Positions 1-32,845 of a stretch of DNA of 64,000 nucleotides are shown here, piece after piece. Made by a program: the position numbers and the translations under genes. A model generated the notes under the pieces. The model ran no database searches, was not told the DNA's origin, and worked only from the letters and a program-made list of their open reading frames with translations. Source of the DNA: an uncultured delta proteobacterium (lineage in GTDB: Bacteria; Desulfobacterota; Zymogenia; Zymogenales; Zymogenaceae); contig CAVTLK010000003.1 in assembly GCA_963735595.1 (NCBI GenBank), positions 1 to 64,000 of the forward strand. The letters run 5' to 3'. Numbering within the stretch: position 1 is the stretch's first letter; every line of letters begins with the position of its first letter.

Positions 1-185
1 ACGATCCCGAGACGATCGCGCTGGTTAAAAGGACCCCCACCCGTCTCAAGATCAGTCCCGAAAACGCCGAAAACCTCCGCTCGGCCGCAAAGATTGTCGT
101 GGCCGGTGTTAGAGACAGGATCCTCGCCAACTACGAGGGCAGGGATATAATGGACGAGCAGCCGGCTTTCGGCCCGGCGCCCTAA
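1..185 (+). CDS. C-terminal end of patatin-like lipoprotein (mirror of 31423-32823)
   Basis: Frame 3 reads DPETIALVKRTPTRLKISPENAENLR..., matching DPEMIARVKKTPTRLKISPENAENLR; stop TAA at 183-185. Confidence 0.85.
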   Translation, partial: DPETIALVKRTPTRLKISPENAENLRSAAKIVVAGVRDRILANYEGRDIMDEQPAFGPAP

Positions 186-296
186 TGAGGCCGGTCCTCA
201 CGTGTTGCCCGATACCGTACTGCCGGCGGCAGCTCTGCCGCCGGCAGGCGCCGCTGGATGGCCGATTTAGGGATGACGCTCCCGCGAGACGGCCTG

Positions 297-971
297 CTAC
301 GGAATCAGAACAAAGTAGTAGGTGGAAGCGGCGATCATGAACTGCCCCGCGTAATACGGTACGAGCGAGAGGCGGTTGTATTTCATCGGTAGCCGGAAGC
401 GGTTGAGGGCAAGAATCACGTCCGAGACATAGAACAGGAGGCTGCCGCCCGTAATGAGGGCCGCCGTGACGGGCGTTATCCTGGGCGAATAGAGGGTCGA
501 TACCGCCGCGGCCGCCATAAAGGAGATAATCAGGATGTAGACCCCTACCGATACCTTCATGGACCCGAGCCCGGGAAGGAGCAGCAGATAAACGGCCGTT
601 CCCAGGCCGAAGAAGAGGGCCGCGATTATCGGAAGCTGGGGGACCGTACCGGCAAAATAGACGAACGCGCCGCCATAGATTACGTGGGCAAGCAGGAACA
701 GGACGAGCCCGATCCGAAAGGGCGTGGGCCTTTCCTGAAACATCAGGGCCAGATCCCCGCCGAAAGAAAACAGGAGGCCGAGAAGAATCGCCAGCGTAAA
801 GGGAAGATACGATCCGGCGTCCGAAAGGGATAGCATACAGACGATAATCACCAGAATCGTGGAGATCGGCTTAAGGATATAGATGCCCGTTTTCTTCTTT
901 TGTATCTCGAACCAGACCAGAAGCGAAACCGAGATCACCAGCAGCGGAATAATCATAATAAATGCCTTCAT
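297..971 (-). CDS. yhhN: YhhN-family lysoplasmalogenase-like membrane protein
   Basis: Multi-TM; GLLFSFGGDLAL, FLLAH..Y, LFYVSD..LA, YYAGQ motifs. Confidence 0.85.
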   Translation of the reverse strand: MKAFIMIIPLLVISVSLLVWFEIQKKKTGIYILKPISTILVIIVCMLSLSDAGSYLPFTLAILLGLLFSFGGDLALMFQERPTPFRIGLVLFLLAHVIYGGAFVYFAGTVPQLPIIAALFFGLGTAVYLLLLPGLGSMKVSVGVYILIISFMAAAAVSTLYSPRITPVTAALITGGSLLFYVSDVILALNRFRLPMKYNRLSLVPYYAGQFMIAASTYYFVLIP

Positions 972-1113
972 ACCGTGTTCCCCCTATTACCCTATTATTA
1001 GTGCGCATATAGTATCAAAGATCAGACGAGAACTCCACCGTTTTGTTCTTTTCTAAACCGCGCGACGTATGTTATAATCCTGAATATTACAGCTATTGAA
1101 TGGAGCACCGTCA

Positions 1114-1656
1114 ATGCGAAGACTCTCTCTCGGGATATCCCTCGTAATCCTCTGTACGATACTGCTGGGCGCCGATCCCCCTCCCTTTACCCTGTACGAA
1201 AACGAGAAATTCGGTTACCGGCTGGATATCCCGGCCGGTTTTATGATGAAGGGCGACTGGGGAATGCAGACCTCATGGGTATACGTCCCCGGCGAAAAGG
1301 AAAAATTTGAGGATGTGATATTCCCGATTATCAGCGTCGTCACCTACGAAATTCCCAAGCGGTTCTCAGAGGTCACGCTTTATAATACGAAGCTGAAAAA
1401 GATTAAGGAAATGATCGCCGAAAAGGACAGTGGCTACGAAGACCTCGAAACCCTCACCGTTGAGGGCGGACATGCCCTCATGTACAAAGAGGCGGATACC
1501 GGCGACGACCAGGCCCTCAACCACTGGTACGTTAAAGTATACGGCAACGGCAGGGAGCACACGCTGGAGGTATCCGGCACCCGTCGGCAGCTCAGGGAAC
1601 GGCGGTCTGATTTTAAGCACGTCGTAGACAGCTTCCAGCTTATCCCCCAAAAGTGA
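1114..1656 (+). CDS. Exported hypothetical protein (PsbP-like fold possible)
   Basis: Signal peptide, YENEKFGYRLDIP; conserved in mirror copy 29950-30486. Confidence 0.7.
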   Translation: MRRLSLGISLVILCTILLGADPPPFTLYENEKFGYRLDIPAGFMMKGDWGMQTSWVYVPGEKEKFEDVIFPIISVVTYEIPKRFSEVTLYNTKLKKIKEMIAEKDSGYEDLETLTVEGGHALMYKEADTGDDQALNHWYVKVYGNGREHTLEVSGTRRQLRERRSDFKHVVDSFQLIPQK

Positions 1657-1726
1657 AAGCCGGCGGCGGCGGAATCGCCGCCGGTGCTTACCCTTTTTAT
1701 ATACCTACGGCAGGGAACAATCGCAT

Positions 1727-2197
1727 ATGCAGGAAGAAATTAATCAGATTATTCGTAGCGGCAGGAAAAAGAAGATCGCGCTCGTCGCCCACGACGACCG
1801 GAAGAAAGACCTCCTTCAGTGGGCCGACTTCAACCGCCTGACGCTCTCCAAACACGACCTGTTTGCCACCGGCACCACCGGCAAGCTCCTGTTTGACGAG
1901 CTGGGGCTTAAAGTCACGTCGTTTAAGAGCGGCCCGCTCGGCGGCGACGAGCAGATCGGCGCCAGCATCGTCGAGGGCAAGATCGACTTTATGATCTTTT
2001 TCTGGGACCCGATGCAGTCCCACCCGCACGACCCGGACGTGAAGGCCCTCTTGCGGATCGGCGTCCTCTACAACATCCCGATGGCCTGCAACCGCACCAC
2101 CGCCGATTTCATGATCTCATCTCCCCTCATGGACAAGGAATACGGCCGGACGATGATCGACTACGAGAAGCGGATCAAGCGGGAGATCCCGATATAG
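1727..2197 (+). CDS. mgsA: Methylglyoxal synthase
   Basis: IALVAHD..K, ATGTTG, SGPLGGD.QI, FFWDP...PHDPDVKALLR motifs. Confidence 0.95.
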   Translation: MQEEINQIIRSGRKKKIALVAHDDRKKDLLQWADFNRLTLSKHDLFATGTTGKLLFDELGLKVTSFKSGPLGGDEQIGASIVEGKIDFMIFFWDPMQSHPHDPDVKALLRIGVLYNIPMACNRTTADFMISSPLMDKEYGRTMIDYEKRIKREIPI

Positions 2198-2274
2198 CGC
2201 GTCGGGAAACGCCGCTTCTCGGAGGGCCCTGTTTTAGAAGACGGATATTCTCTACAACCCATTCCGGTTAATCA

Positions 2275-2715
2275 ATGCCTATAAACAAAATCGATACCGC
2301 CGTTGCCGCCTTTACCGAGGGCTTTTCCTGCTCCCAGGCGGTCTTTTCGGCATTCGAGGAAGAGTTGAGTCTCGACAGGGCGACTGCCCTGATGGTTTCG
2401 ACCGCCTTCGGCGGCGGTATGGCGGGCATGGGGCTGACCTGCGGGGCGGTGACGGGGGCGCTGATGGTCATCGGGGCAAAACACGGAAGGGTTGAGGCAT
2501 CCGACGATGCCGCCAAGCAGAAGACCTACGATATGAGCCGAGAGTTCATGCTGCGCTTCACCGAGCGGCACGGCTCTATTGCCTGCCGCGATCTGCTCGG
2601 CGTCGACATCTCCACGCCCCAGGGAAGGGAGCTGGCCAAAACCAAGGACCTCTTCAAGACGCTCTGCCCCCGGCTCGTTGCAGACGCCGCAGAGATCCTT
2701 GAGGAGATCATCTGA
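2275..2715 (+). CDS. C-GCAxxG-C-C family putative redox protein
   Basis: FSCSQAV, FGGGM...TCGAVTGA, SIACRDL, TLCPRLV. Confidence 0.9.
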   Translation: MPINKIDTAVAAFTEGFSCSQAVFSAFEEELSLDRATALMVSTAFGGGMAGMGLTCGAVTGALMVIGAKHGRVEASDDAAKQKTYDMSREFMLRFTERHGSIACRDLLGVDISTPQGRELAKTKDLFKTLCPRLVADAAEILEEII

Positions 2716-2731
2716 GGCGGTCAAAAAAATC

Positions 2732-2760
2732 TTGACATGACGGCCGAATTCGGTAATCAT
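2732..2760 (+). promoter_or_regulatory. Candidate sigma70 promoter of the selenium operon leader
   Basis: cTTGACAtgac is conserved in both diverged arms; the -10 element is weak and uncertain. Confidence 0.45.
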
Positions 2761-2796
2761 GCAGAAGAACTCTATTGGATACTCAATAAAACCATT

Positions 2797-2994
2797 ATGA
2801 GCAGGCGAACCTTCATAGCAATCAGATGAGGCGCGTTCACGGGGCCCGGGCGGTCCCGCAGACACGCCGTATCGTCCGCTTTCCCGGCCACGGGCTGACA
2901 CACCCCCGCGCCCTGTCCGGGAAACCGGGCCGGGGCGCACCGTGCACCACCACAGAGAAAAGACCTCCATACCGCCAACGACCGTTTGTCATAG
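2797..2994 (+). CDS. Putative leader peptide with two in-frame UGA (Sec?) codons: MSRRTFIAIR-U-GAFTGPGRSRRHAVSSAFPATG-U-...
   Basis: TGA at 2827 and 2896, same 69-nt spacing in the mirror copy. 6 of 8 changed codons up to the second TGA are synonymous. SECIS-like hairpins at 2830-2868 and 2908-2938. Confidence 0.6.
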
Positions 2995-3135
2995 CTCACC
3001 TGTTGTCATCGTGTTTTCCATCCAAACCAGTGCGGCGGCTGCAGACCGTTCCTATATAAAGGAATCAACTAATTTCGGGGGAATCCCTGCATCGGGAGAC
3101 CCCTCTATTATTTGTGCATGAAAGGAGTATAGTCT

Positions 3136-4245
3136 ATGAAACAGAAGCTTGGGTTTTTCGCATCCCGGTGGGGGATCATTGCGGTGGGCGCCCTTATCGG
3201 GATAATCGCCGTGTCCCTGCAGAAGCTGGGCAATCCCGCCAACATGGGCATCTGCATGGCCTGCTTCCTGCGGGACGTCACCGGGGCGCTGGGCCTCCAC
3301 CGCGCGGCCATGGTGCAGTACATCAGGCCCGAAATACCTGCGTTTATCCTCGGCGCATTCATCGCGGCGGTCTCGTTCGGGGAGTTCAAGTTCCGCACGG
3401 GGTCTGCCCCCATCATCCGGTTTGCCCTCGGGATGTTCGCCATGATCGGCGCCCTGATCTTCCTCGGCTGCCCCTGGCGGGCGCTCTTACGGCTTGCCGG
3501 CGGCGACTGGAACGCGATCATCGGCATCGCGGGGCTGATCGTGGGTATCACGGTAGGCGTCCTCTTCCTGAGGAAGGGCTATCCCCTCGGCATAAGCCAA
3601 CACGAAAATAACCGGCTTGCATGGCTTATTCCCCTGGCCGCGGCCATTCTCGTGCTCCTTGCCGTCTTCTATCCTTCCTTCGGCGACAAAATGGCCCTCT
3701 TCAGGAGCGTCGAGGGACCCGGTTCCAAGGCAGCTCCGATCGCTATCTCCCTCGGGGCGGGCCTGATCATTGGCTTCGTTGCCCAGCGGACGAGGTTCTG
3801 CACGATGGGCGCGATCCGGGACGTCATCCTCATGAAGGACTGGCACCTGGCCTCGGGAGTCATCGCCCTGGTGGTAGCCGCCTTCGGCGCGAACCTCATC
3901 CTGGGCCAGTTTCATCCCGGCTTTACCCTCGGCGTTGACGAGGCGGGAAAGGTCATCAGCCAGCCAGCGGCCCATACAGTCTGGTATCTTAACTTCGGCG
4001 GCATGGCTCTGGCGGGCCTTTCGTTTGCCCTTGCCGGCGGATGCCCCGGCCGGCAGATATTCTTGACCGGAGAGGGTGATGGAGACGCCGCTGTCTTCGT
4101 CCTCGGCATGCTGACCGGGGCCGCCGTTTCACATAACTTCAACGCCGCCGGCGCCGCCCCCTTCGCCGCCTGGGCGATGGGCATCGGCCTTGCGGTCGTG
4201 CTCTTGATCGGTTTTCTCTCGATCGCCAAAGGAGGCAACGCATGA
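3136..4245 (+). CDS. yedE: YedE-family selenium metabolism membrane protein
   Basis: GNPANMGIC.ACFLRD..GALGLH, QYIRPEI, GCP.R..LR.AGGD, QRTRFC..G, GGCPGRQ. Confidence 0.93.
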   Translation: MKQKLGFFASRWGIIAVGALIGIIAVSLQKLGNPANMGICMACFLRDVTGALGLHRAAMVQYIRPEIPAFILGAFIAAVSFGEFKFRTGSAPIIRFALGMFAMIGALIFLGCPWRALLRLAGGDWNAIIGIAGLIVGITVGVLFLRKGYPLGISQHENNRLAWLIPLAAAILVLLAVFYPSFGDKMALFRSVEGPGSKAAPIAISLGAGLIIGFVAQRTRFCTMGAIRDVILMKDWHLASGVIALVVAAFGANLILGQFHPGFTLGVDEAGKVISQPAAHTVWYLNFGGMALAGLSFALAGGCPGRQIFLTGEGDGDAAVFVLGMLTGAAVSHNFNAAGAAPFAAWAMGIGLAVVLLIGFLSIAKGGNA

Positions 4246-4454
4246 CGAAGACCATTGACGCGCGGGGGCTCTCCTGCCCCCAGCCGGTCATCATGACAAG
4301 GGACGCCCTCATGGCCGCAAAGAGCGGTCGTATCAGTGTCCTTGTGGATACGATGACACAGGTGTATAATGTAAGCCGCTCCGCCGAGAAGCTCGGTTGG
4401 GCCGCCGGCCACGAACAAAAGGACGACCAGTTCGTCATAACGCTCGAAAAGTAA
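4242..4454 (+). CDS. TusA/SirA (YedF-like) sulfur/selenium carrier
   Basis: IDARGLSCPQPVI motif; overlaps the yedE stop. Confidence 0.9.
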   Translation: MTKTIDARGLSCPQPVIMTRDALMAAKSGRISVLVDTMTQVYNVSRSAEKLGWAAGHEQKDDQFVITLEK

Positions 4455-4457
4455 TCA

Positions 4458-4496
4458 GGTACGGGCGGCCGTTCCCAATGGATGGCCGCCCGTACC
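4458..4496. other. Strong intergenic hairpin within the selenium operon
   Basis: ggtacgggcggcc / ggccgcccgtacc 13-bp perfect stem; no U-tract. Confidence 0.6.
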
Positions 4497-4516
4497 ATAC
4501 CCTTGTGAGACAAAAC

Positions 4517-5665
4517 ATGATCTATCTTGACAATGCCGCCACGTCGTTCCCCAAGCCCGCGACGGTCCCCGAGGCGATCGTGAACTTCATGACCCGGGTA
4601 GGGGCAAACCCCGGTCGCTCCGGCCACCGCCTCTCGGTCGAGGCCGAGCGGATCCGTTTCGGGGCGCGGGAGCGTATCGCGCGCCTCATGAACCACCCAG
4701 ATCCTCTGCGTGTGGTCTTTACCGCCAACGTCACCGCGGCCCTAAACCTTGTCCTGCTCGGGATGTTGAAACCTGGAGGCCGGGTGGTGGCCACCGGAAT
4801 GGAACATAATGCGGTCATGCGGCCGCTCCGGTTCCTCGAAGAGCGGGGCGTGACCGTGACCCTGGTCGACGCCGCGCCGGATGGGGCGATCGACCCACAA
4901 AGCATCGAGCGCGCCCTGGACAAACCCGCTCAGCTCGTCTGCACCCTGCATGCCTCAAACGTCATCGGGACGATCGTGCCGATCGGCGAAATCGCCCGCA
5001 TCTGCCGCGGCAGGGGAGTACCCTACCTGGTGGACGCCGCCCAGACGGCCGGGTGCGTCCCCATCGACCTGGGACGGGACCCCGTCGATATACTTGCATT
5101 CACCGGCCACAAGGGGCTGTTGGGCCCGACGGGGACGGGCGGGCTGGTCTTTTCCCCCGCCTTTGATGAAACGTGCATCGCCCCTCTCATCCTCGGCGGG
5201 ACGGGCAGCCGGTCGGAACAGGAATATCAGCCGGAGTTCCTCCCCGACCGTTTTGAGAGCGGCACCCCCAACATCGCCGGCATCGCGGGGCTCTCGGCGG
5301 GGCTTGACTATATCCTTGCGCGCGCTCTGGACGATATTCGCGCCCACGAGTCGGCGCTGGCCGGCCGGCTCATCGAGGGGCTCCTCGCGATAGACGGGGT
5401 AACGATATACGGCACGACCGACCCGAAACGGCGGACGGCGGCCGTTTCGTTTCGGATATCCGGCGTCGACAATGCCGTCGCGTCCCGCCTGCTGGCAGAA
5501 GAGTTTGACATCATGTGCCGGGCCGGGCTTCACTGCGCGCCCCGCGCCCATAAGACCATCGGGACGTTTCCCGAAGGAACTGTCCGCCTGAGCATCGGCC
5601 CTTTCAACACCGAGGCCGATATAGACGCGGCGCTATCGGCCGTGGCGGCGATTGCTCACAAATAA
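4517..5665 (+). CDS. Cysteine desulfurase-family (class V PLP) protein, probable selenocysteine lyase
   Basis: MIYLDNAATS.PKP, HASNV.G, DAAQTAG, FTGHKGLLGP.GTG, RAGLHCAP.AH. Confidence 0.9.
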   Translation: MIYLDNAATSFPKPATVPEAIVNFMTRVGANPGRSGHRLSVEAERIRFGARERIARLMNHPDPLRVVFTANVTAALNLVLLGMLKPGGRVVATGMEHNAVMRPLRFLEERGVTVTLVDAAPDGAIDPQSIERALDKPAQLVCTLHASNVIGTIVPIGEIARICRGRGVPYLVDAAQTAGCVPIDLGRDPVDILAFTGHKGLLGPTGTGGLVFSPAFDETCIAPLILGGTGSRSEQEYQPEFLPDRFESGTPNIAGIAGLSAGLDYILARALDDIRAHESALAGRLIEGLLAIDGVTIYGTTDPKRRTAAVSFRISGVDNAVASRLLAEEFDIMCRAGLHCAPRAHKTIGTFPEGTVRLSIGPFNTEADIDAALSAVAAIAHK

Positions 5666-5754
5666 CACGGCGGCCCGTACTGATCAGATATAGGTTTATC
5701 TTTTCACCGGTTAATGATATGATACATTCCCGCCGGGAGGCCGGACGAGTTGAT

Positions 5755-5976
5755 ATGGACGAGTATGGTGTTATACTGACCTTTTCCACCGGGCACTCCA
5801 TCAGGGCCGAAAGGGTCCTGAGCGAGGCGGGAATCGAGTTGAAGATGATCCCGGTGCCGCGCCACCTTTCCAGCGACTGCGGCGTTGCGCTGCGCATCAG
5901 GAGCCGGGATCGCCAATCCGCCCTGAAGACCCTCACAGAGAAGGGCGTGTCTTACGATCGGTATGAGCCGCTGTAA
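5755..5976 (+). CDS. DUF3343 putative Se/S carrier protein
   Basis: F.STGH.IRAE, IPVPRHLSSDCGVAL; typical yedE/selD neighbour. Confidence 0.85.
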   Translation: MDEYGVILTFSTGHSIRAERVLSEAGIELKMIPVPRHLSSDCGVALRIRSRDRQSALKTLTEKGVSYDRYEPL

Positions 5977-6024
5977 ATAGACCCCGCGTGTCTGCGGGAC
6001 ATTATTAGCCGTGTGATGGAGATT

Positions 6025-7074
6025 ATGGAAAAACAGGAAAAACTGCGGCTGACGCAGTGCGCCAAGGCGGCCGGCTGAGCCGCCAAGACGGCCCCCGGGT
6101 CGCTGGCGCAGGTCATGCGCACACTTCAAAACCTATTTCCGAAAGAGAAGTTTCCCGACCTGCTGGTCGGTATGGACGACGGAGACGACGCGGCCGTCTA
6201 TCGTCTGAACGAACACCTGGCGCTCATCTTTACGCTTGACTTTTTCACGCCGATCGTCGACGATCCCTATGATTTCGGCAGCATTGCCGCCGCTAACTCC
6301 ATGTCGGACGTCTACGCTATGGGAGGGGACGTCGCGCTGGCTCTCAATATCTGCGGTTTCCCCAGGGACATGGAGCCCGCGGTTATTGCCGAAATCCTGC
6401 GCGGCGGTGCCGACAAGGTCATCGAAGCCGGCGGGATACTCTCCGGGGGGCACACCATCAACGACGACGAACCGAAATACGGCCTTGCCGTCATCGGTTT
6501 CGTTCACCCGGAAAAGGTCCTGACCAAGCGGGGTGCCGTTCCCGACCTTCTCGTCCTCACCAAACCCCTCGGCGTGGGGATTATCACCACGGCCCTCAAG
6601 GCGGGCAAGGCCCGCATAGATCACGTGTCCGAGGCAACGGCCAGCATGCAGCGGCTCAACAAGAAAGCCTCGATTGTGTTGAGGGAGGCCGGCGCTCACG
6701 CGATGACGGATGTCACCGGGTTTGCCCTGGTCGGCCACGCCCTGGAAATCGCCGCTCACGGCAAGGTTCTCCTTCGTTTTAGGGCAGGCTCGCTCCCCTT
6801 CCTTCCGGGTGCCGTCGACTACGCGGAGCAATGGCTCTTTCCCGGCGGGACGGCCGCAAACCGGCAGGCCTACGAGCGTGACGTTCGGTTCTCTGAGGAT
6901 ATCGCCGAGGAGACCGCTCAGCTCCTCTTTACTCCCGAGACGTCGGGCGGGCTGCTTGCCGCCGTTCCCAAAAACAAGCTTGGCCAAATCAGGTCGCGGT
7001 TCGCCGAAGACGGCCGGGATATCTGGGTCGTCGGGGAAGTAGACGAAGGCCGGGGCATTGAGATAATCGGGTAA
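6025..7074 (+). CDS. selD: Selenide, water dikinase (selenoprotein; Sec at codon 18, TGA 6076-6078)
   Basis: MEKQEKLRLTQCAKAAG-U-AAK is in frame with the 6115 ORF; DDAAVY, DFFTPIVDDPYDFG.IAAAN..SDVYAMGG, TDVTGF, PETSGGLL. Confidence 0.95.
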
Positions 7075-7141
7075 ACAGCGCCCGACCTTAACGGGCCGGG
7101 TAGGATATTATTTAAATATTAGGTAAGTGAGGGAATTCAGA

Positions 7142-7414
7142 ATGGAGAATAAGGAGGCATACCGAAAGGCGGAACAGCGGGTCCGGGCGAAGATGGGCTT
7201 TTTCACCCATCTCTGCGTTTACCTCGGCATTAATCTCATCCTCTTTTTCATCAACCGGGAGACCCTTGGCCCCAACGGATACCAGTGGTTTATCTGGCCC
7301 CTCCTCGGATGGGGAATCGGTATTTTCTTCCATTTCATGGGTGTATTCGTTTTCTCCGGCGCCATCAGGGAGCGGATGATCCAGAAGGAGCTGGAGCGGC
7401 AGAACAGGAAGTGA
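7142..7414 (+). CDS. 2TM domain protein
   Basis: A..RV..K.GF..HL..Y..IN, WFIWP.LGWGIG..FH. Confidence 0.85.
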   Translation: MENKEAYRKAEQRVRAKMGFFTHLCVYLGINLILFFINRETLGPNGYQWFIWPLLGWGIGIFFHFMGVFVFSGAIRERMIQKELERQNRK

Positions 7415-7711
7415 TCGTTTCCGGCGACCGACAAATCTCTCACGCCCGGGCTATTTAGGCAGCATACGCTCCTTTCCCTCTTCCGATACGGATGACCTCA
7501 TGTCGGTCCGCGCGAAGACGATGACCGGCCATGCACGGGTTTCGTTCGTCTGCGCAGAGTCTTGCTTTCAGGCCCCATATATCATATATGGCTGGCTCGT
7601 CATACCGTCATACCCTTGCCATCCGGCTTTACATCTATGACCTTGCATCAATACGCCCGATTATGGTATACTTATGCACTAAAGATTTCACGCACCATCA
7701 AGGAGTTCTTT

Positions 7712-8245
7712 ATGAAACCCATCGGCCCGCTGATGCACGAGCATCGGCTCATCGAGAGGATGATCGCGGTGATCGGACGACGAAAGGACATCATCGCACG
7801 GGATCGGAAGGTCGATCCGGTCTTCATCGACACCGCGGTGGACTTCATCAGGACCTATGCCGACAGGACCCATCACGGCAAAGAAGAAGACATACTCTTC
7901 CGAGACCTGGCAAAAAAGAATATGAGCGTCGATCATACCCGGATCATGCAGGAGCTGTTGGACGAGCATGTCTTCGCCCGAAAGATGACCGGCGAGCTTG
8001 TCGCCGCAAAGGAAGCCTGGGTCGCGGGGAACTCCGAGAGCATTGCCGTCATCGTCGACCGGATATCGACGCTGATCGACTTCTATCCCGTACACATACG
8101 CAAGGAAGACAAGGAGTTCTTCTTCCCCATCCTCGAGTACTTCTCCATAAATGAGCAGGATACGATGCTGGCGGAGTTTTACGAATTCGACCAACGCATG
8201 ATCCATGATAAGTACCGCCTGCTGGTTGAGAGTTTCGAGAAGTGA
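7712..8245 (+). CDS. Hemerythrin/HHE cation-binding protein
   Basis: LMHEHRLI, HHGKEEDILF, EH..AR, HIRKEDKEFF; RBS aggag. Confidence 0.9.
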   Translation: MKPIGPLMHEHRLIERMIAVIGRRKDIIARDRKVDPVFIDTAVDFIRTYADRTHHGKEEDILFRDLAKKNMSVDHTRIMQELLDEHVFARKMTGELVAAKEAWVAGNSESIAVIVDRISTLIDFYPVHIRKEDKEFFFPILEYFSINEQDTMLAEFYEFDQRMIHDKYRLLVESFEK

Positions 8246-8336
8246 GAAAGCCGGCCGCCACGCTCGGTTTTGCCGGCCGCGGCCCGTATGGTAGTTTGAA
8301 AACGGTTTTGACGATACACCGGAGATAAATACATTC

Positions 8337-9969
8337 ATGGCCCCCAAGACCAAGGGTATCAAGAGCGACGCTGCGAGCATCGGAAACAACCGGGCAGCGG
8401 ACGGTCAGGATATCGGCAGTAACCCAAAAAGCACTCCCCTCGGCACGCCCGGCGATCTCGTTACCCCCGATATGAAGAAATACCAGGCGATGCTTGGCTC
8501 CAATCCCTCCTCCCGCGTATTTGCGACCCTGGCGGAGCTCTATCGCAAGCAGGGCATGTATGACGAGGCCATCGGGCTGTGCCTCAAGGGCCTCGGGCAC
8601 CACCCGGATTACCTCAGCGGCCGGGTCGTCCTGGGTCTGGCCTATTTTGACAAGGGGATGATCAGGGATGCTGCAGAAGTGCTCGAACGGGTCGTTTCAG
8701 CAAAACCGGATCACCTGATGGCCGCCAGGGCCCTCGGCGACGTCATGCTGGCGGACGGCGATAATGAGCGGGCCGAGTACTATTTCAACCATGTCCTTTC
8801 GCTTGCGCCCGACGATCAGGACGTTATCAGGAAGCTTGAATCGTTGACGAACCGGCCCGGCGCGGAAGTCCCGCCGCAGACGGCCACGGACGAAACGGCT
8901 CACGAGGCGGCAGCGCCCTTACCCGACGAGATCATCGAGGGTGAGGGCCTGGAGATTGTCGAGAGCGGCGGCCTCTCTCTGGAAGATACGGCCAACAGCC
9001 GCCACGAGAACGGAGAGACGCGCCAAGCCGCCGGCGATGTCCTTCCCGCAGACGAGGTGTCCGACATCCTCATCGAACCGGAACAGGAACACCGCCGCAG
9101 AAAGGGACCGCGCGTCCACCAGCCCGGCGTCGCGACGAAACCCGAAAGAGATGCGCCGGCGGCCGCAACCGGTCTCCCCCCTGTACCACGCTATCGAACG
9201 CCTACAAATAGGGATCGTCATTACCGATCTTGACGGCACCGTTCATTACGCCAACGGCGCCGTATCCGAAAGCCATGGCTGGGCAAAGGAAGACCCGATC
9301 GGTCGAAACATAAGTGACTTCTTTCCCCCGGGGATCTTCCAACCGATGACAATGCACGAGATCCTTGACAAGAAAAGAGCCTCTCCAAACATACCGTAAA
9401 CGTGAGGAAGGACGGCTCGGATCTTTCCCGTTCGTATAACCTTCGACATCGTTGAGGGCGAATCGAGGCCTGCCTATATCATCGTCGGTATCGACGACCC
9501 TTTCCCGGCACAAAGACGTCGACGAGGACCTGTGGCAGCTCTCCATCAAAGACGCCGAGTCAGGCCTGTCAACCGTCGCTATTTTCTCTCAAAGATCGCT
9601 GAAGAAACCAAGAGGGCGGAGAGGATTGGGTATCCGCTCTGCCTGATGGTCATTACCATCGACAACTTCAAATCGTATCAGGCGGCCGATGCCCCCCGGA
9701 AAGGTCAAGACGGTCGCCGAGATCGGAAAAATCGCGAGGCAGTCCATCAGGAAGGAGTTTGACAGCGCTTACCGCCTCACTGAGGAGGAATTCGCCGTCA
9801 TCCTGCTCACCGCCACCGACCAGAAGGCCCTCATCGTGGCGCAACGCCTGAGGGAAAAGATCACCAAGAGGTTGCCCGGAATCGAGATCGGAATCGGGAC
9901 CGCCTCCAGCAAGATCACCGGTCAATCGAAGGCCTGATAGGTGCCGCCGAAAAGGCTATCAATCGGTAA
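8337..9969 (+). CDS. TPR-PAS-degenerate GGDEF protein (frameshifted in this sequence)
   Basis: TPR repeats, then IGIVITDLDGTVHYAN (PAS), then AYRLTEEEFAVIL, spread over several frames. Confidence 0.75.
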
Positions 9970-10258
9970 CTAACGCCCCCCGGAGGGCTAAGGGAGCCAG
10001 ACCCCAAATAGGTACGATGCGCCTTCCTCCGGAATGTCGATAGGATACTCCCCCCTCCCCTCCCCCTTCCCGTCTATCCCACTCGCCCGAACAGAATACC
10101 GTTGATTTCGTTTCCGAAAAATGATATGGTTCGGTGGATAAGTAAAAGAGAAATACACACCCCCATCGGCGTCGGGGGGGGGCGAATTTCGACCACATCC
10201 GAGACTGACGACGGATATCGTGCCGCCGGTGTAGTTAGCTGAAGGGAACCAAGACAAC

Positions 10259-11450
10259 ATGAAGAAACTGAAGATAGCCCTGATTATCGATCAATTCGAC
10301 CCCCGGTCGGGCGGGGCGGAGCGGTATACCGGCAACCTGGCGGCGGGCCTCGCCCGCGAGGGCCACGAGGTGCACGTCTTCTGCCGGCACGGCCGGCCTT
10401 CCCAGAACGGCATTGCCGTACACGTGATCCCGACTATCAAGTACCCCAAGTACCTGAGGCTTCTGACGTTTGTGCGGGGCGTGAGGAAACATGTCAGGAA
10501 GGAGGATTTTGATATTATCCACGGGCTCGTGCATAATCCGGGGGGTACCAGCTGAATTCTCATACGGGCATCGTACAATTATGGTTGTGACGGGCACCGG
10601 TCCCGCGAGTCGGCGGCGGCCCTGCTCTGGGGCCGTATCGTTCGGTTCCTCTCTCCGCGCAGGCACCTCATCCTTTCCCTCCAGAGGCAGCAGTACCGCG
10701 ATCCCTGGGTCAGGCGACCACCTCCCAGTGACAAAATCAAGAACGATATCATGCGATATCATGGCGTCGAGGGCGACCGCATTGAGGTAATCGACAACGG
10801 GCTCGACATCAGGCAATTCAATCCCGGCAACCGCGCCACGTATCGGGACGCGAAAAAGTCGGCCTTACCGAAGACGAGATTATGATCCTGACGGTAACCA
10901 ACAACTACCGGCTCAAGGGGATATTTCCGGCCATACGCATGCTGCCGGCCCTCGCGCGGAGGGTAGATAAACCGTTTGCTGAAGACCCATGGCCGAGGGA
11001 CGACGCGGGCCCATACCGGGAGGAAGCCGAGTGTTTCGGATTGGGTCGTATTCATGAACTTCGTGAAGACATCACGCCGCTGTACGCCGCGGCCGATATC
11101 TTCATGCTGAGTTGACGTTTTACGATACGCGCGGCGCGAACGTAAACGTAGAAGCGATCTCCGGGCTTCCCGTGGTAACCACGAAGGACGCCGGCTCTCA
11201 CGTGTTCGTTAAATCAAGAGACATGGGATGGGTTGTCGACGATCCGCGAGACCACGAGGCCGTCGCAGAGGCCGTATCCTACGATCTCGAGAGAAGCGCG
11301 GGCAAAGGCATACGCCGTCTCCGAGAAACTATACACCCGATTTTCCTCAAGTGAGACACTAATAAGATCCAGGAGGTATATCGGCGGGTTATCTCAGGGC
11401 AACAAGGATAGGCACGCGCCGCAGTACTCGGCCGGCCTCAATATACGCGA
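10259..11450 (+). pseudogene. GT4 glycosyltransferase (WaaG-like); many indels, probably read errors; end approximate
   Basis: GGAERY..NLA..L...GHEVHV; YAAADIF; EA..SGLPVVTT. Confidence 0.7.
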
Positions 11451-11472
11451 CTCAATTACAGTCAAGGCGGCG

Positions 11473-12238
11473 ATGAAAGACAGATACTATTCCCATTTCG
11501 GTATATCTGATAACAAAAAACGAGATCCGGAGGATCGAGCGGCGTCTTACCAGCGTTGCCGGCTGGGCTGATGAGATCGTGGTGGAGGATTCCGGAAGCG
11601 ACGACGGCACCCTCGAGGTCGTCCGAAAGTTCACTCACGGTATATCACAAAGACTTCGAGGGGTTCGGGCAGCAATACACGTATGCCCATGGGTTGACGA
11701 AAAATAAATGGGTCATGTATATCGACGGAGACGAGGAAGGTCCTCCCGGCTTTCGCCGACGAAATCATCGGGCTCTTCAAGGACGGCGACCCCCAGGGCG
11801 AATGGCAGCACGCCCGAGGGAGACGTTCTATTCGGCTGATGGATCAAACACGGGGGTGGTACCCCGACCTTATCCATCGTATTCTTGCACTTGGAAGACC
11901 AGGGGACGTGGAAAAAGGGCCTGCATCCGAAGCTCCATATCAACGGGAAAAATGGAGAGGCTCGAACACCCGTTCCTCCACTACAATTACCGCGATATCT
12001 CACACCAGATCATGACGGTGGACCGCTATTCGACAATCGCCTCCAAAGAACAGGTCGATCAGGGTAAGGAGTCTCGATAGCAAGGCTGTGGCCTTCCGGG
12101 TTGTGCGAGACTATTTTCTCCGGGGAGGTTTACGAGATGCTGGGCTCTTACATCGCGGCGACGCACCGCCTACTACGTCTTCATAAAATACGCCAAGACC
12201 TGGGAGCTCGTGAGAGCGAAAAACATACTCTCGGGTAG
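11473..12238 (+). pseudogene. GT2 glycosyltransferase (KdtX/WaaE-like), indel-riddled copy
   Basis: WVMYIDGDE, LHYNYRDISH..TVDRYS; mirrors 19324-20114. Confidence 0.7.
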
Positions 12239-12662
12239 TGATCGGGAAGATCGTGGCTTGACACCGGACCCCAGACCGATCCTCCCGTACATGGAGAGCC
12301 GTCACCCGATTAGTACCGGCGAGCCGGAGTTCAGTTCCGCCCTGGCATGAATCCACTGGAACAAATGCTGCCCTAAGGAAATCCCTTTCTATCGGTTCTT
12401 CCCAATCACGCGTCGCATAGTCCCGCTGCTAACGGCTCACGTCACCATAACTATCTACCGATGTCACTTACATTAGAGACTCCACATATTATATATAACT
12501 AATTCCATTGCAGTTTCCGGACAACTATTCTAATCTATCGCGCATGATGATGAGTTCTTGCGACCATCGCGAACATCATGGCTTTTTGAGGTGTTGATTC
12601 ATTACGCGCGAATTCAACCCACCGGTTCACTACTTACAGGCCGTTAAAGGAGGCAAATCGAA

Positions 12663-14582
12663 ATGAGACCGACTAACACATTTAAGCAGCTATTCGGGAT
12701 CTATCGGAGAGTACTCCGCATACGACGGTAAAATACCCTCACGAAAATCCCCTTTTTGAAAACCCCCCGGGAATATCTTGAATCCAGGAGAGGTAAATTC
12801 CTGTACGGTGTTTTTAAGCGATTGTCCGAACGCCGGGCCATAAATAACTAAGGCCTCGATAATATAAATTATATCTGTGATGTGCCGTGTGGGCCGGGAG
12901 ATTATTCTCCTACTGGGGAAAAGAGGATACAGAGTCACTGGTGTTGATCTTTCCGATCCTATGCTTGTGGTGCATGTGAGGTGTGTGCTGATTTTGATCC
13001 ACGAAACAGAGTGATTAAAGGCGATGCCTTCTCGCTCAATGACTTCTTGCCGGAGAAAAACCCGATCTGATCGCTTCGATCAGATTCTTTTATTACTTCA
13101 AGAGAGAAAAGAGAATCGAGCTACTGAAGACCATGGCTGCGGCATCGAAAAAGTATTTGCTCGTACAGTATAAGCATCCGAGACGATAAGGGGAAGGCGG
13201 AGACTAAGAATGATTCGTGATATTGGCTTCGCCCTCCAGTCAGCAATTCTGTTCAACGAGGAAATTAGACACTCTGGAGGCCGCCGGTTTGGAATTGATC
13301 AGGATCGTGCCCATCTCGAAGTTTTCCGACAGGTCTTTGTTGCCGCGCGGAAACGCCTGCAACAGGAAAATACCTGCGGAAACGAGACGCCATACCGCGC
13401 GGCCCGACGCAGGGATGGGGCAACGGACTTCTCCCCGGTTATGCCGACGGCGCAGGCCGGCAAGCAAACCGAGCGGCTTCATCAGAGCCGGAAACGAAAA
13501 ACGGGAACATACCAAAACAGCCGAAGGGGGAATAAACAACGATGAGAAGAAGGGTATCGCCAGCACCGCCCTTCCTGTGCATTTTCCTTTTCTCTTTCGC
13601 CATCCTGTTTTCATTGTCTATGCCACGGCGTCGATCGTATACGGAGAGTCAACTGAGGATGTCCAGTTGCCGAAGTTCCTGGGAAATAAACCTGATAATA
13701 TCAAACTTGGCCTCACGGCAACCATACCGGCCCCGGCCCCTTTTCGTTCTATGTGGTCGGGACACGAAGTCTCGCCAATTTCTTTCCTTCCATATATGAA
13801 AACGGATATCCGCGACGATACTCCCGATTCGGCCTCATCCTCGGTGATTTTGTTACCAATCCAAAGCCCGAGGACTCACCACATTTTTTGATCGACTTCA
13901 CCACATGGGGTGTCCGGTCACCCTGTTTGCGGCACCCATGATATTGTCACGAAAGAAGATATCGGTCGCAAGCGCTCATTCACCTTTACGTTAAAAGACT
14001 ATGAAAATATACATATGGCCGCGATTTTTCGTTTACCTATCACGGGTGCCTGTTTATTGTTTCTCAATGATATCGGACACGACGGCCATGTTGCTTACCT
14101 CGCCGACGCCCTTTCCGCCGAGTGAAGGATACCCTCATGACCTTCGTCTTTGCCCACATCCCGCCCAATATCGTCCGCAATCAAGTGCAGGCAACGACCG
14201 CAGGGGGAGGAGCGATTTATCCCTTATTAACGAATACAACGTCGATTACGTCATCGGGGAGATTTTCATTCCTATTTTCGCTGCAAGACCTAGTTTCATT
14301 ATTTCTGGAGGCGGAATGGATAAGAGGGAGATAGGACGGAGAACAGAAAACACGTGTTTCACAGCGCGTTGAGGTAGACCCGCTGACGAAAGACGTGGCG
14401 GAACGCGCGGACGACCAAACAAACATCTTGCATATGGGAAGAAAGACCGCAATCACTCAGGTCTTTGCCTTCTTCGAAAGAAACGAGCATTGGGAGGCCC
14501 CGTTTCATCCTCGACGGCGTTATTGTCGTTTCTCCTTGGCGCGTTAGGATTCGTATTTGCGGCGCGCGCCCATAAAAGGTAA
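12663..14582 (+). pseudogene. Indel-riddled mirror of the methyltransferase + metallophosphoesterase locus
   Basis: Near-identical to the reverse complement of 16893-18878 apart from indels. Confidence 0.75.
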
Positions 14583-14959
14583 TCGCGCCGTCAATGCGGC
14601 GGAAGGGGCACGGGCACAAAGGCCCCGCGTCTCGCTGAAATATCTCGATCGGATATATCTTTAGATATTAGCTTTCCGCTGCAATTTTTCGTTCTGGAGC
14701 GGATTTTTTCACTACCCCGATCCTATTTGAATGAACTCGCGCGAAAACAGTTTTATTCAGACCCGTCTCTGTATCTTCGCTACAACAATACTATTCAAAA
14801 GACTATATTTGTGATAAAATTTCTAAGAATCTTCATGTGGAGCCCGGTCATCTAGTGAACGGCGGGTTACTCCCGCGATTGATTTTTTTATGAACCGGCC
14901 GGAAATTGATACCCTTTTCGACTGCATTCGGCCCTTTTGAGATCCTATTGGTGGTCCCA

Positions 14960-15697
14960 ATGAAAAGGATACTGTTGATGGTCCCGGATCCTCGCACAGC
15001 TTACCGATATTCTAACATCACTCGGATACGGCCTCGGCTGCATCCGGCGGAAGCGATTCCTCGCCAACGCGCCTCCCGACGCGATCCTGATGGATATCGT
15101 CATGCCCGGGCCGAACCTGACGGCATTCGGCTGGCGCGCCTGATCCATCAAGAGCTTGATATTCCGACCATCTTCCTGACGGAAGCCGGAACGCAGACGT
15201 AGTATCCAGGATCAGAGATACCGGCGCGTACGGGTATATCGAGAAACCGGTCAGCGAAGCGAGTATCTCGGGAGCGGCTATCGAAATCGCCCTGCGGCAA
15301 AGACAATCCGTCCGGAACACTGACCTCTATGAAGACCTCGTCGAGACGAGCGACTTTGTTTACGTCCTGATGGCGGGGAACATAGAAATCGACCGCGTGC
15401 CGGGCGCTCGGTGGATCTCTCGATCGGCTCAAGGGCAGGAATATTAAAGACCTGATACCATCGGCCTCGTATAGAATCGCGCAGGTTCGCGACGGCTCGA
15501 GGGAGAACGAATTTTGAGCTTGAGCTGTATGACGCCGAAAAGAACGTGAGGACCATTGAAACCCGGGAGCGGCCTAAATGGGAAAATGGGAGAATTGTTG
15601 AGGCTTACGGGATCGGGTGGGACGTAACCGAGCGAAAAAGGGCCGACAAGTTTTTCAGGAAGCGCGAGGAGCGTTACCGGATCATAACCGAAAATAT
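14960..15697 (+). pseudogene. Truncated, indel-riddled REC-PAS gene (mirror)
   Basis: Mirror of 15698-16510. Confidence 0.7.
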
Positions 15698-16510
15698 CCA
15701 GGACCCAGACGGTATCCCGCATATTTTCGGTTATGATCCGGTAACGCTCCTCGCGCTTCCTGAAAAGCTCTTCGGCCCTTTTCCGCTCGGTTACGTCCCG
15801 CCCGATCCCGTAGACCTCAACAATTCTCCCATTTTCCCATTTAGGCCGCTCCCGGGTTTCAATGGTCCTCACGTTCTTTTCGGCGTCATACAGCTCAAGC
15901 TCAAAATTGCCGATTTGTTCTCCCTCGAGCCGTCGGGCGAAGACCTCTGCGGCGATTCTATACGAGGCCGATGGTATCAGGTCTTTAATATTCCTGCCCT
16001 TGAGCCGATCGAGAGATCCACCGAGCGCCCGGCACGCGGTCGTATTCAGGAACTCTATGTTCCCCCGGCCGTCCAGGACGTAAACAAAGTCGCTGGTATT
16101 CTCGACGAGGTCTTCATAGAGGTCGGCAATCTTCCGGACGGATTGTCTTTGCCGCAGGGCGATTTCGATAGCCGCTCCGATTTCGCTTTGGCTGACCGGT
16201 TTCTCGATATACCCGTACGCGCCGGACTCTCTGATCCTGGATACGACGTCTGCGTTCCGGCTTCCCGTCAGGAAGATGGTCGGAATATCAAGCTCTTGAT
16301 GGATCAGGCGCGCCGCCCCAATGCCGTCAGGTTCGCCGGGCATGACGATATCCATCAGGATCGCGTCGGGACGCAGCGTTCGGGCGAGGTCAATCGCTTC
16401 CGCGCGCCGGATGCGGCCGAGCCGACCGTTTCATATCCGAGTGATGTTAGAATATCGGTAAGCTGTGCGAGGATCAGGGGGGAGTCGTCGACTATCAGTA
16501 TCCTTTTCAT
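15698..16510 (-). CDS. Response regulator receiver + PAS sensor, truncated at the fold-back point
   Basis: LMDIVMPG..DGI.AA, IPTIFLT, YGYIEKP; PAS ends GIGRDVTERKRAEE; the second PAS is cut at ENMRDTVWVLD. Confidence 0.85.
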
Positions 16511-16892
16511 TGGGACCACCAATAGGATCTCAAAAGGGCCGAATGCAGTCGAAAAGGGTATCGATTCCCGGCCGGTTCATAAAAAAATCAATCGCGGGAG
16601 TAACCCGCCGATTTACTAGATGACCGGGCTCCACATGAAGATTCTTAGAAATTTTATCACAAATATAGTCTTTTGAATAGTATTGTTGTAGCGAAGATAC
16701 AGACGGGTCTGAATAAAACTGTTTTCGCGCGAGTTCATTCAAATAGGATCGGGGTAGTGAAAAAATCCGCTCCAGAACAAAACGTGCCGCTGGACACGGA
16801 AGGCTAATATCTAAAGATATATCCGATGGAGCTATATTTCGGCGAGAACGCGGGCCCTTCTGTCCGTGCCCCTTCCGGCATTGACGGCGCGA

Positions 16893-18878
16893 TTACCTTT
16901 TTATGCGGCCGCGCGCCGCGAATACGAATCCTAACGCGCCAAGGAGAAACGACAATAACGCCGTCGAGGATAAAACCGGGGCCTCCCAATGCTCGTTTCT
17001 TTCGAAGAAGGCAAAGACCTGAGTGATTGCGGTCTTTCTTCCCATATGCAAGATGTTTGTTTGGTCGTCCGCGCGGTATATGCGTTCCGCCACGTCTTTC
17101 GTGAGCGGGTCTACCTGGAGAAACACGCTGTGAAACGCGTCCTTTCTGTTCTCCGTATTATCTCCCCTCTTATCCATTCCGCCTCCAGAAATAATGAAAT
17201 TCGTATTTCCGGTCTTGCAGCGAAAATAGGAATGAAAATCTGCCCCGATGACGTAATCGACGTTGTATTCGTTAATAAGGGATAGAAATCGCTCCTCCCC
17301 CTGCATCGTCCTGCACTTGATTGCGGACGATATTGTATGGGGCGGGATGTGGGCAAAGACGAAGGTCATGAGGGTATCCTTCGCTCGGCGGGAAAGGGCG
17401 TCGGCGAGGTAAGCGACGTGGCCGTCGGTGTCGATATCGTTGAGAACGATAAACAGGCACCCGTGATAGGTAAACGAAAAATCGCCGGGGCCGTACATAT
17501 TTTCATAGTCTTTTAACGTAAAGGTGAATGAGCGCTTGCGACCGATATCTTCTTTCGTGACAATATCGTGGTTGCCGCAAACAAGAAATAGGGGTGACCG
17601 GACACCCCATGTGGTGAAGTCGATCAAAAAATGCTGATGATCCTCGGGCTTTGGATTGGTAACAAAATCACCGAGGATGAGGCCGAAATCGGGAGTATCG
17701 TCGCGGATATCGTTTTCATATATGGAAGGAAAGAAATTGGCAAGCTTCGTGTCCCCGACCACATAGAACGAAAAGGGGCCGGGGCCGGTATCGGTTGCCG
17801 TGAGCAGTTTGATATTATCAGGTTTATTTCCCAGGAACTTCGGCAACTGGATATCCTCAGTTGACTCTCCGTATACGATCGACGCCGTGGCATAGACAAA
17901 TGAAAACAGGATGGCGAAAGAGAAAAGGAAAATGCACAGGGAAGAGGCGGTGCTGGCGATACCCTTCTTTCTCATCGTTGTTAGTTCCCTTCGGCTGTTT
18001 TGGTATGTTCCCCCGTTTTTCGTTTCCGGCTCTGATGAAGCCGCTCGGTTTGCTTGCCGGCCTGCGCCGTCGGCATAACCGGGGAGAAGTCCGTTGCCCG
18101 CATCCCTGCGTCGGGCCGCGCGGTATGGCGTCTCGTTTCCGCAGGTCTGTTCCTGTTGCAGGCGTTTCCGCGCGGCAACAAAGACCCTGTCGGAAGACTG
18201 CGAGATGGGCACGATCCTGATCAATTCCAAACCGGCGGCCTCCAGATCCTCTCTAATTTCCTCATTAGAACAGAATTGCTGACTGGAGGGCGAAGCCGAT
18301 CTGGCGAACATTCTTAGTCTCCGCCTTCCCCTTATCGTCTCGGTAGTCTTATACTGTACGAGCAAATACTTTTTCGATGCCGCAGCCATGGTCTTCAGTA
18401 GCTCGATTCTCTTTTCTCTCTTGAAGTAATAAAAGAATCTGATCGAAGCGATCAGATCGGGCTTTTCTCCGGCAAGAGAGTCATTGAGCGAGAAGGCATC
18501 GCCTTTAATCACTCTGTTTCGTGGATCAAAATCGGCGCACACCTCGCGTGCCGCCGCAAGCATAGGATCGGAAAGATCAACACCAGTGACTCTGTATCCT
18601 CTTTTCCCCCAGTAGGAGAATAATCTCCCCGGCCCACACGGCACATCACAGATATAATTTATATTATCGAGGCCTTCCAGCGATTTATTTATGGCCCGGC
18701 GTTCGGACAATCGCTTAAAAACACCGTACAGGAATTTACCTCTCCTGGATTCAAGATATTCCCGGGGGTTTTCAAAAAGGGGATTTTCGTGAGGGTATTT
18801 TACCGTCGTATGCGGAGTACTCTCCGATAGATCCGGAATCGCCTTCTGCCTTAAATGAGTCGGTTTAGTCGGTCTCAT
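16893..18878 (-). CDS. Class I SAM methyltransferase followed in frame by a membrane-anchored metallophosphoesterase (fusion, or two genes)
   Basis: DVPCGPGR, GVDLS..ML; then TM, VVGDT, LGDFV, GNHD, FAHIPP, DFH.Y, SGGG. Confidence 0.8.
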   Translation of the reverse strand: MRPTKPTHLRQKAIPDLSESTPHTTVKYPHENPLFENPREYLESRRGKFLYGVFKRLSERRAINKSLEGLDNINYICDVPCGPGRLFSYWGKRGYRVTGVDLSDPMLAAAREVCADFDPRNRVIKGDAFSLNDSLAGEKPDLIASIRFFYYFKREKRIELLKTMAAASKKYLLVQYKTTETIRGRRRLRMFARSASPSSQQFCSNEEIREDLEAAGLELIRIVPISQSSDRVFVAARKRLQQEQTCGNETPYRAARRRDAGNGLLPGYADGAGRQANRAASSEPETKNGGTYQNSRRELTTMRKKGIASTASSLCIFLFSFAILFSFVYATASIVYGESTEDIQLPKFLGNKPDNIKLLTATDTGPGPFSFYVVGDTKLANFFPSIYENDIRDDTPDFGLILGDFVTNPKPEDHQHFLIDFTTWGVRSPLFLVCGNHDIVTKEDIGRKRSFTFTLKDYENMYGPGDFSFTYHGCLFIVLNDIDTDGHVAYLADALSRRAKDTLMTFVFAHIPPHTISSAIKCRTMQGEERFLSLINEYNVDYVIGADFHSYFRCKTGNTNFIISGGGMDKRGDNTENRKDAFHSVFLQVDPLTKDVAERIYRADDQTNILHMGRKTAITQVFAFFERNEHWEAPVLSSTALLSFLLGALGFVFAARGRIKR

Positions 18879-19323
18879 TTCGATTTGCCTCCCTTAACGG
18901 CCTGTAGTAGTAGTGAACCGGTGGGTTGAATTCGCGCGTAATGAATCAACACCTCAAAAAGCCGGACTGATCGTCGCGATGGTCGCAAGAACTCATCATC
19001 ATGCGCGATAGATTAGAATAGTTGTCCGGAAACTGCAAATGGATTAGTTATATATAATATGTGGAGTCTCTAATGTAAGTGACATCGGTAGATAGTTATG
19101 GTGACGGTAATTGAGCCGTTAGCGGCGGGAAGCTATGCGACGCGTGATTGGGAAGAACCGATAGAAAGGGATTTCCTTAGGGCGGCGTTTCTTCCAGCAC
19201 ATTAGTGGATTCATGCCAGGGCGGAACTGAACTCCGGCTCGCCGGTACTAATCGGGTGACGGCTCTCCATGTACGGGAGGATCGGTCTGGGGTCCGGTGT
19301 CAAGCCACGATCTTTCCCGATCA

Positions 19324-20114: not shown

Positions 20115-20117
20115 CCG

Positions 20118-21342: not shown

Positions 21343-21631
21343 GTTGTCTTGGTTCCCTTCAGCTAACTACTACCGGCGGCACGATATCCGTCGTCAGTCT
21401 CGGATGTGGTCAAAATCGCCCCCCCCCCCGACGCCGATGGGGGTGTGTATTTCTCTTTTACTTATCCACCGAACCATATCATTTTTCGGAGCGAAATCAA
21501 CGGTATTTTGTTCGGGCGAGTGGGATAGACGGGAAGGGGAAGGGAGGGGGGAGTATCCTATCGACATTCCGGAGGAAGGCGCATCGTACCTATTTCGGGT
21601 CTGGCTCCCTTAGCCCTCCGGGGGGCGTTAG

Positions 21632-23274: not shown

Positions 23275-23366
23275 GAATGCGCCTATCTTCGGTGTGTCGT
23301 CAAAACCGTTTTCATACTACCATACGGGCCGCTGCACGAGTCAACGCGAAGCGGCGGCCGGCTTCA

Positions 23367-24476: not shown

Positions 24477-24543
24477 TCTGAATTCCCTCACTTACCTAAT
24501 ATTTAAATAATATCCTACCCGGCCCGTTAAGGTCGGGCGCTGT

Positions 24544-28684: not shown

Positions 28685-28829
28685 TGCGCCCCGTTCCGTT
28701 CTTCCCGGACGGGGCACGAGGGCGTGTCAGCCCGTGAGCGGGAAGGCGGAGGATACGGCGTGTCTGCGGGACCGCCCGGGTCCCGTGACCGCGCCTCATC
28801 TGATGGCTATGAAAGTTCGCCTACTACAT
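28685..28829 (-). other. Second copy of the double-UGA leader with SECIS-like hairpins
   Basis: TGA at 28796-28798 and 28727-28729; reads SRRTFIAIR-U-GAVTGPGRSRRHAVSSAFPLTG-U; one extra base after the ATG. Confidence 0.55.
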
Positions 28830-32823: not shown

Positions 32824-32845
32824 TGTTATCAACCGCCTCGACGAC

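Follow-up and report, generated by a model that had tools for sequence, protein, structure and literature searches.

The window (the whole stretch of DNA that was analysed, 64,000 nucleotides) makes up the first part of contig C3 in an assembly of 3.6 Mb. Near its left end, a run of genes from yedE to selD is headed by a short leader ORF with an in-frame UGA and a SECIS-type hairpin. The host genome encodes selA, selB and tRNA-Sec. The features of the locus are as follows.

2732..2760, + strand: predicted sigma-70-type promoter (TTGACA-17-AATCAT), 10 of 12 consensus matches, about 36 nt 5' of the leader ATG
2797..2898, + strand: leader ORF (uORF1), comprising 10 codons, UGA, 22 codons and a TGA stop
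2827..2829, + strand: sensing UGA, the predicted selenocysteine codon; TGA stands 15 nt before the hairpin core in 9 of 9 loci and 3 of 3 places of the own genome
2830..2869, + strand: SECIS-type hairpin 1, upper stem 2840-2846/2852-2858, loop 2847-2851 (CGGGC)
2875..2895, + strand: segment 1, the 3' half of the leader ORF, which can pair with 2910-2930 and thereby open hairpin 2
2896..2898, + strand: second TGA, most likely an ordinary leader stop (TGA 17, TAG 13 and TAA 4 among 34 homologues)
2908..2938, + strand: hairpin 2, predicted to hide the GGGG Shine-Dalgarno-like run (2932-2935) of ORF2
2942..3121, + strand: relay ORF2, 59 codons from a GTG, without sequence conservation, its end at the Shine-Dalgarno of yedE
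3077..3113, + strand: bulged GC hairpin with a weak U-rich tail, terminator-like, inside ORF2 and kept in the genus
3136..4245, + strand: yedE, putative selenium transporter (TIGR04112 above cut-off)
4242..4454, + strand: TusA/SirA-like sulfur or selenium carrier, 70 aa (Pfam TusA)
4517..5665, + strand: cysteine desulfurase / selenocysteine lyase family (TIGR01977 above cut-off, SclA model below)
5755..5976, + strand: DUF3343-type Se/S carrier (Pfam PF11823)
6025..7074, + strand: selD, which has its own in-frame UGA (6076), followed by a hairpin
28727..28829, - strand: mirror leader, almost the same sequence as in the relative G001

The gene after yedE had been called yedF in a sequence-only reading of this DNA, but it encodes a TusA-only protein that scores under the YedF cut-off. 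The TTGACA of the predicted promoter likewise stands upstream of the leader in G001, G003 and G008. Just 5' of the promoter ends a gene (2275-2715) of the C-GCAxxG-C-C family, which includes selenoprotein members; this copy is without an in-frame UGA. Elsewhere in the window (31423-35980, - strand) lie three tandem diverged paralogues, and the one tested has a patatin-like domain.

The mirror copy belongs to a fold-back, in which bases 1-15703 recur reversed at 15715-31628 with 85% identity, the identity between the arms ranging from ~70% to 100%. The differences between the arms are biological, because they concentrate at third codon positions in five or more genes; the mirror-arm genes also carry frameshifts. 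In yhhN, the next gene, mgsA, yedE, the tusA stretch and the desulfurase gene, the mirror arm is 95-96% identical to G001, as against 77-83% for the first arm. Most likely, then, the mirror arm comes from a sibling species whose sequence the assembly joined into a chimeric fold-back at the contig end. A duplication within the genome is unlikely, the mirror arm being far closer to G001. The mirror can thus serve for comparison between species but not between copies in one genome, and the genes duplicated here should not count as paralogues.

Comparison with this second species bore out the synonymous bias reported previously. Up to the second TGA, 6 codons differed synonymously, 2 non-synonymously and 1 with a gap (binomial P ~0.004 at a neutral share of 0.25). 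Of the synonymous pairs, however, AGC/AGT would not be a real change, since G001 reads ATG-TGT in frame and the extra base after the mirror's ATG therefore probably arose in assembly; two others keep RNA pairs and so are not pure coding evidence. The flanks were indeed less conserved than the leader (identity 0.89): the promoter stretch had 0.71 and the sequence after the leader 0.57.

The leader ORF, its UGA and hairpin 1

ATG 2797, TGA 2827-2829, TGA 2896-2898 and TAG 2992-2994 lie in one common frame, as noted before, and the suspicion of a weak Shine-Dalgarno was well placed, as the leader ORF was found to be without any. We compared metagenome leaders and family members (39 sequences, 34 distinct); many are close kin, so that the counts overstate independence. 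An ATG or GTG was found in frame 9-15 codons 5' of the UGA in 30 of 34 homologues, and in 0 of 34 in each other frame. The next in-frame stop followed 19-27 codons after the UGA in all 34, as against 16 and 1 in the other frames, a count that is partly circular because the homologue set was picked by eye. When the hairpin core was searched without the TGA, a TGA was present 15 nt upstream in 12 of 12 cases (9 position-selected loci and 3 in the own genome).

Both hairpins fold as described in the sequence-only reading, hairpin 1 with its loop CGGGC 17 nt after the UGA. This hairpin has a 5-nt loop, a 7-bp stem, a G at loop position 2 and a folding energy of -11.7 kcal/mol. As given in the available part of the source, the bacterial SECIS consensus has a loop of 3-9 nt, an upper stem of 4-16 bp, a G in the first two loop positions, a distance of 16-37 nt from the UGA and an MFE of at most -7.5 (PMC13188914), and hairpin 1 falls within all four SECIS criteria stated there. 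It thus equals the SECIS of selenoprotein genes in loop, stem, loop G, UGA distance and energy as that part of PMC13188914 gives them, but it sits in a 33-codon ORF without a conserved peptide; for this reason the decoding event, not the peptide product, looks like the point of the leader ORF. In the rows compared, 24 of the 33 available (23 distinct), all 7 stem pairs hold throughout (100% paired). Two-sided changes were found in two outer pairs of the 7, both outside the search pattern; the inner pairs are fixed by that pattern, and the changes run mostly along one lineage split. The search of Rfam that had been called for found no known riboswitch or cis-element in the window (0 matches at gathering score), and in 2650-3200 there was one chance hit (E 8.8).

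To place these results against chance, we used a detector consisting of an ATG, 4-25 codons, a test codon and a hairpin with a G early in its loop. The yedE set held 170 loci, of which 165 match yedE, 154 are distinct and 148 have 450 nt upstream. With TGA as the test codon, 32 of 148 upstream regions matched; with TAA, TAG, TGC, TGT, TGG, CGA, AGA, GGA, TCA and TTA, there were 4, 1, 3, 4, 4, 7, 5, 2, 1 and 4 matches of 148, respectively, and 30 shuffles gave 2-11. Since controls and shuffles also match, some of the 32 are chance matches. A looser detector separated less (TGA 35, controls 3-14). Among 728 long ORFs from the own genome, a set that includes non-genes, 27 matched the first detector. 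No detector leader was found in 116 of the 148 loci. The matches include Anaerolineae and a Fibrobacterota member, and there were none (0/4) in the yedE genomes without selA, which are four only (G052, G269, G119 and G149).

A DNA pattern matched in 9 of 401 genomes of the phylum, and the control matches were 0. Upstream of yedE in G001, G006, G007, G008 and G009, we found an ATG, 10-14 codons, an in-frame TGA and the same hairpin. The element is present in G004 with UGA-GAU, and in G003 with the start one base out of frame, in an assembly whose yedE is frameshifted too. In G002 (L220), from which yedE and tusA are absent at this place, the leader lies directly before the desulfurase gene. The leader pattern was not matched in G005. 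We also observed that the leader ATG of the G008 locus lies a few bases past a predicted -10 box upstream of yedE, and this leader ORF may be leaderless. The own genome has a second leader of the same design (G000:C5:557511; L229:1501), which precedes a full-length yedF and ends in TAA; its relay ORF (see below) overlaps the yedF ATG, and it has counterparts in G002 and G003. When the hairpin 1 DNA pattern was applied to metagenomes without regard to context, it returned 41 stretches, 30 with the leader layout by eye and 11 without. The gene after these leaders was yedE in 14, tusA/yedF in 3, mauE-like or its remains in 11 (a call Pfam-checked on one locus) and a BcrAD-type activase in 1, and 1 ended at a contig edge.

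On these comparisons, the leader is a real, conserved UGA/SECIS element, within the family and in other phyla, and we regard a selenocysteine-decoding ORF with a regulatory role as very likely. The sequence-only reading had proposed a selenocysteine-sensing leader with two UGAs and two SECIS elements. Its sensing part stands, by the in-frame start, the invariant first UGA, the covarying hairpin at a fixed distance, the enrichment and the presence of selA, selB and tRNA-Sec; its two-UGA, two-SECIS part does not, for this family.

A probable relay ORF and a candidate RNA switch

ORF2 went unremarked in the earlier reading. Its GTG 2942 follows the 3' arm of hairpin 2 with the GGGG run, and ATG replaces this GTG in G003, in L203 and in contigs from three of four sequencing runs. 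The identity of ORF2 within the genus is 0.55-0.57, and its product has no NCBIfam match. Taking as a relay ORF one that starts 107-139 nt past the UGA and has its stop between -20 and +5 relative to the ATG of the following gene, we found relay ORFs in 14 of 19 loci, compared with ~2.0 expected (summed shuffle chance), and none in L003, L177, L006, L206 and L228. A stricter test on a different locus set gave 11 of 17. The relay ORF after the G002 leader was wholly different, yet it too overlaps the ATG of the following gene.

In the mauE group, the start equivalent to that of ORF2 is mauE's own start. The leader was observed to head a mauE-like gene with a TTG start in nine loci (L176, L193, L194, L195, L197, L202, L207, L208 and L215), and in some metagenome loci truncated remains of mauE separate the leader from yedE, which suggests that relay ORFs may be worn-down mauE genes. 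Since these remains are all there is, and no mauE turned up ahead of yedE in any of the 148 loci, the mauE-first loci are candidate selenium operons only. In L214, a gene for a BcrAD/BadFG-type activase comes after the leader and may belong to the selenium regulon too.

The start of ORF2 is linked to the leader ORF by a candidate RNA switch. The duplex of segment 1 has -32.2 kcal/mol (z -3.2) and 96% of its cells are paired in the 5 genus sequences; it shows one two-sided change, which is not significant (104 of 500 shuffles reach as many, with 5 sequences). For hairpin 2, 91% of cells are paired in the sequences of the genus, and covariation is weak. When a ribosome was modelled as a mask at codons +14 or +16, the cost of opening the ORF2 start rose by at least 3 kcal/mol in 12 of 25 loci and fell by as much in none; in 13 of the 25 there was no such rise. 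In the window, opening this start costs ~12 kcal/mol even when unmasked, so that it is not evident that the on state is open at equilibrium.

Neither a terminator scan nor folding found a canonical intrinsic terminator in the leader of the window, and the scan did not pick up the hairpin at 3077..3113. In terminator-type leaders of other lineages, the 3' half of the ORF pairs with a terminator arm in 4 of 5, and a terminator was switched by the ribosome mask in only 2 of 39 leaders at equilibrium. Stretches of C over G were also seen downstream of the leader, as a raw observation, and a Rho-type output was considered.

From these elements, we propose the following mechanism. A short ORF bears one UGA and a SECIS-type hairpin, as the sequence indicates. 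By the known mechanism of SelB, the UGA would be decoded when Sec-tRNA is present and the ribosome would go on to cover the 3' half of the ORF up to the stop, whereas it would stall or be released at the UGA when Sec-tRNA is absent. In the folding model, a 3' half left uncovered invades hairpin 2 by pairing, so that the ORF2 start is loosened, while a ribosome on the 3' half lets hairpin 2 form and the start be hidden. Translation of ORF2 would then bring ribosomes to the yedE start, and may also block the terminator-like hairpin or Rho. The net effect would be that the genes for selenium uptake and activation are on at low selenium and lowered at high selenium.

Thus, the ribosome probably gauges the cell's selenocysteine supply on the leader and sets the selenium genes through the RNA switch and the relay ORF. 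For the reading as a whole, a ribosome-mediated attenuator that senses selenocysteine supply, with the operon on at low selenium and down at high selenium, we estimate a probability of roughly 0.6. Taken singly, the relay ORF is likely to be the output of the leader, and the models lean, somewhat less strongly, towards the on-at-low-selenium direction, which is favoured by a logic shared between the masking results and the terminator-type leaders, namely that read-through takes away the opening strand. Whether the UGA/SECIS leaders before yedE and yedF form a natural regulon, in which each gauges Sec-tRNA and passes the decision through a sequence-free relay ORF coupled to the first gene, we consider an even bet.

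The opposite sign is the alternative that survives best, although it is unlikely. Here read-through would bring the ribosome to the stop and open the next start, so that the operon, including the selenoprotein SelD, would be on with selenium. A mask at the stop lowered the opening cost by at least 3 kcal/mol in 9 of 25 loci, mostly of the mauE type, which fits this sign, and the stop region of mauE-type leaders pairs with the Shine-Dalgarno and start of the next gene. In the window's own genus, however, the same mask raised the cost by 8-10 kcal/mol in 4 of 4 members, and the terminator-type leaders likewise indicate off at high selenium.

Other readings of the leader

The nearest selenium precedent is the 5' UTR of E. 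coli selAB, where a SECIS-like hairpin 3 nt from the Shine-Dalgarno acts by binding, according to the available part of the source (PMC13449736). In both cases a SECIS-like hairpin and SelB-Sec-tRNA are tied to selenium genes; unlike at the window's leader, that part of PMC13449736 mentions no leader ORF or UGA decoding. By this precedent, SelB-GTP-Sec-tRNA could bind hairpin 1 and act on the RNA, with the UGA as an ordinary stop. We consider such an operator without decoding improbable, because hairpin 1 lies ~90 nt from the nearest regulated start, compared with 3 nt in E. coli, because an in-frame start and a fixed UGA are conserved, and because the frame behind the UGA stays open for 20-26 codons in every homologue (34 of 34).

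About as improbable is decoding of both UGAs as selenocysteine, which would give a two-step sensor and a 65-codon peptide. Hairpin 2 (stem 2908-2920/2925-2938, loop GAAA, 22 nt after the second TGA) formally passes loose bacterial SECIS criteria, with its loop 22 nt away and a G first, and the TGA is retained there in 5 of 5 sequences of the genus. In related genomes, where the conservation of the TGAs was to be checked, the first UGA is kept but the second is not: half of the homologues (17 of 34) have TAG or TAA there, and TAA stands at its place in the paralogue leader of the own genome. Further, the frame and length behind the second TGA differ within the genus. An independent contig covers 2778-2973 without gaps, so that this difference is unlikely to be an error of the window's assembly. 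An in-frame UGA and a downstream frame that are both conserved, as would be expected behind a SECIS, were therefore not found for hairpin 2, and the claim that both UGAs sense, each with its own SECIS, was abandoned for the Zymogenaceae leaders; hairpin 2 is better explained as a cover of the ORF2 start. Judging from the alignments, the leader ORF most likely just ends at the second TGA. Four leaders of other lineages (L109, L127, L130 and L054) are very short, reading M-x(4)-UGA-x-TGA; each has a strong Shine-Dalgarno and is followed by a single hairpin, and they may be true two-UGA sensors.

A small selenoprotein with a function of its own, such as a selenium carrier or store that is co-transcribed and not a regulator, is very improbable. 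Some third-position excess exists 5' of the UGA in one lineage (4, 6 and 14 extra states by codon position); between genera, however, only the residues spelled by the hairpin are kept, frameshifts close to the ORF end are tolerated with the stop position unchanged, and the leader peptide has no NCBIfam match. Chance or an assembly artefact is hardly credible, even though this GC-rich genome has many UGAs followed by a G-loop hairpin (572 under loose filters) and the assembly has indels and a fold-back, since the leader recurs in independent assemblies of four family genera and in other lineages and control codons and shuffles gave far lower counts.

Known attenuators and selenium control

In the leader-peptide attenuators trpL, hisL and pheL, decoding hinges on charged tRNA, and the RNA chooses between exclusive 1:2 and 2:3 pairings. 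The proposed attenuator resembles these in having a short leader ORF whose decoding would depend on a charged tRNA, placed before supply genes for that amino acid, and the pairings of the modelled switch would likewise exclude one another; the short ORF with the sensed codon is present in the window, its translation being predicted. It differs from them in that a single recoded UGA with a SECIS replaces a run of sense codons, that the alternative to decoding may be release instead of stalling, and that no canonical terminator follows the leader in this family; an intrinsic terminator opposed to an antiterminator overlapping the leader ORF was not found in the window. In the translational attenuators ermC, cat and cmlA, the position of a ribosome on the leader opens or hides a downstream ribosome-binding site, and the signal is an antibiotic. 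Control of a downstream ribosome-binding site by the leader ribosome would be shared with these systems, whereas the signal here would be Sec-tRNA supply, and the hidden start would be that of a non-conserved relay ORF ending at the first real gene.

A UGA/SECIS leader was not described in the literature searched, as far as the available parts of PMC8124441, PMC5322559, PMC13188914, PMC13449736 and PMC13582414, among others, go; supplements could list such ORFs. The words 'leader' and 'attenuat' are absent from a 2026 review, the available part of PMC3428693 holds nothing relevant to such a leader, and a two-ORF translational relay was not found in the sources searched, in so far as these were available.

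How bacteria fit selenium uptake and activation to their need is an open question. The available part of PMC5322559 describes the bacterial selenium regulatory network as not clear and offers a LysR protein as the sole candidate. If the proposed mechanism is true, the leader would sense Sec-tRNA directly, by recoding of its UGA, and leader-peptide attenuation would extend to a recoded amino acid. The leader motif would mark genes of the selenium regulon, namely yedE, yedF, the mauE-like gene and the activase gene, and the sign of the response would also reveal whether YedE imports or exports selenium.
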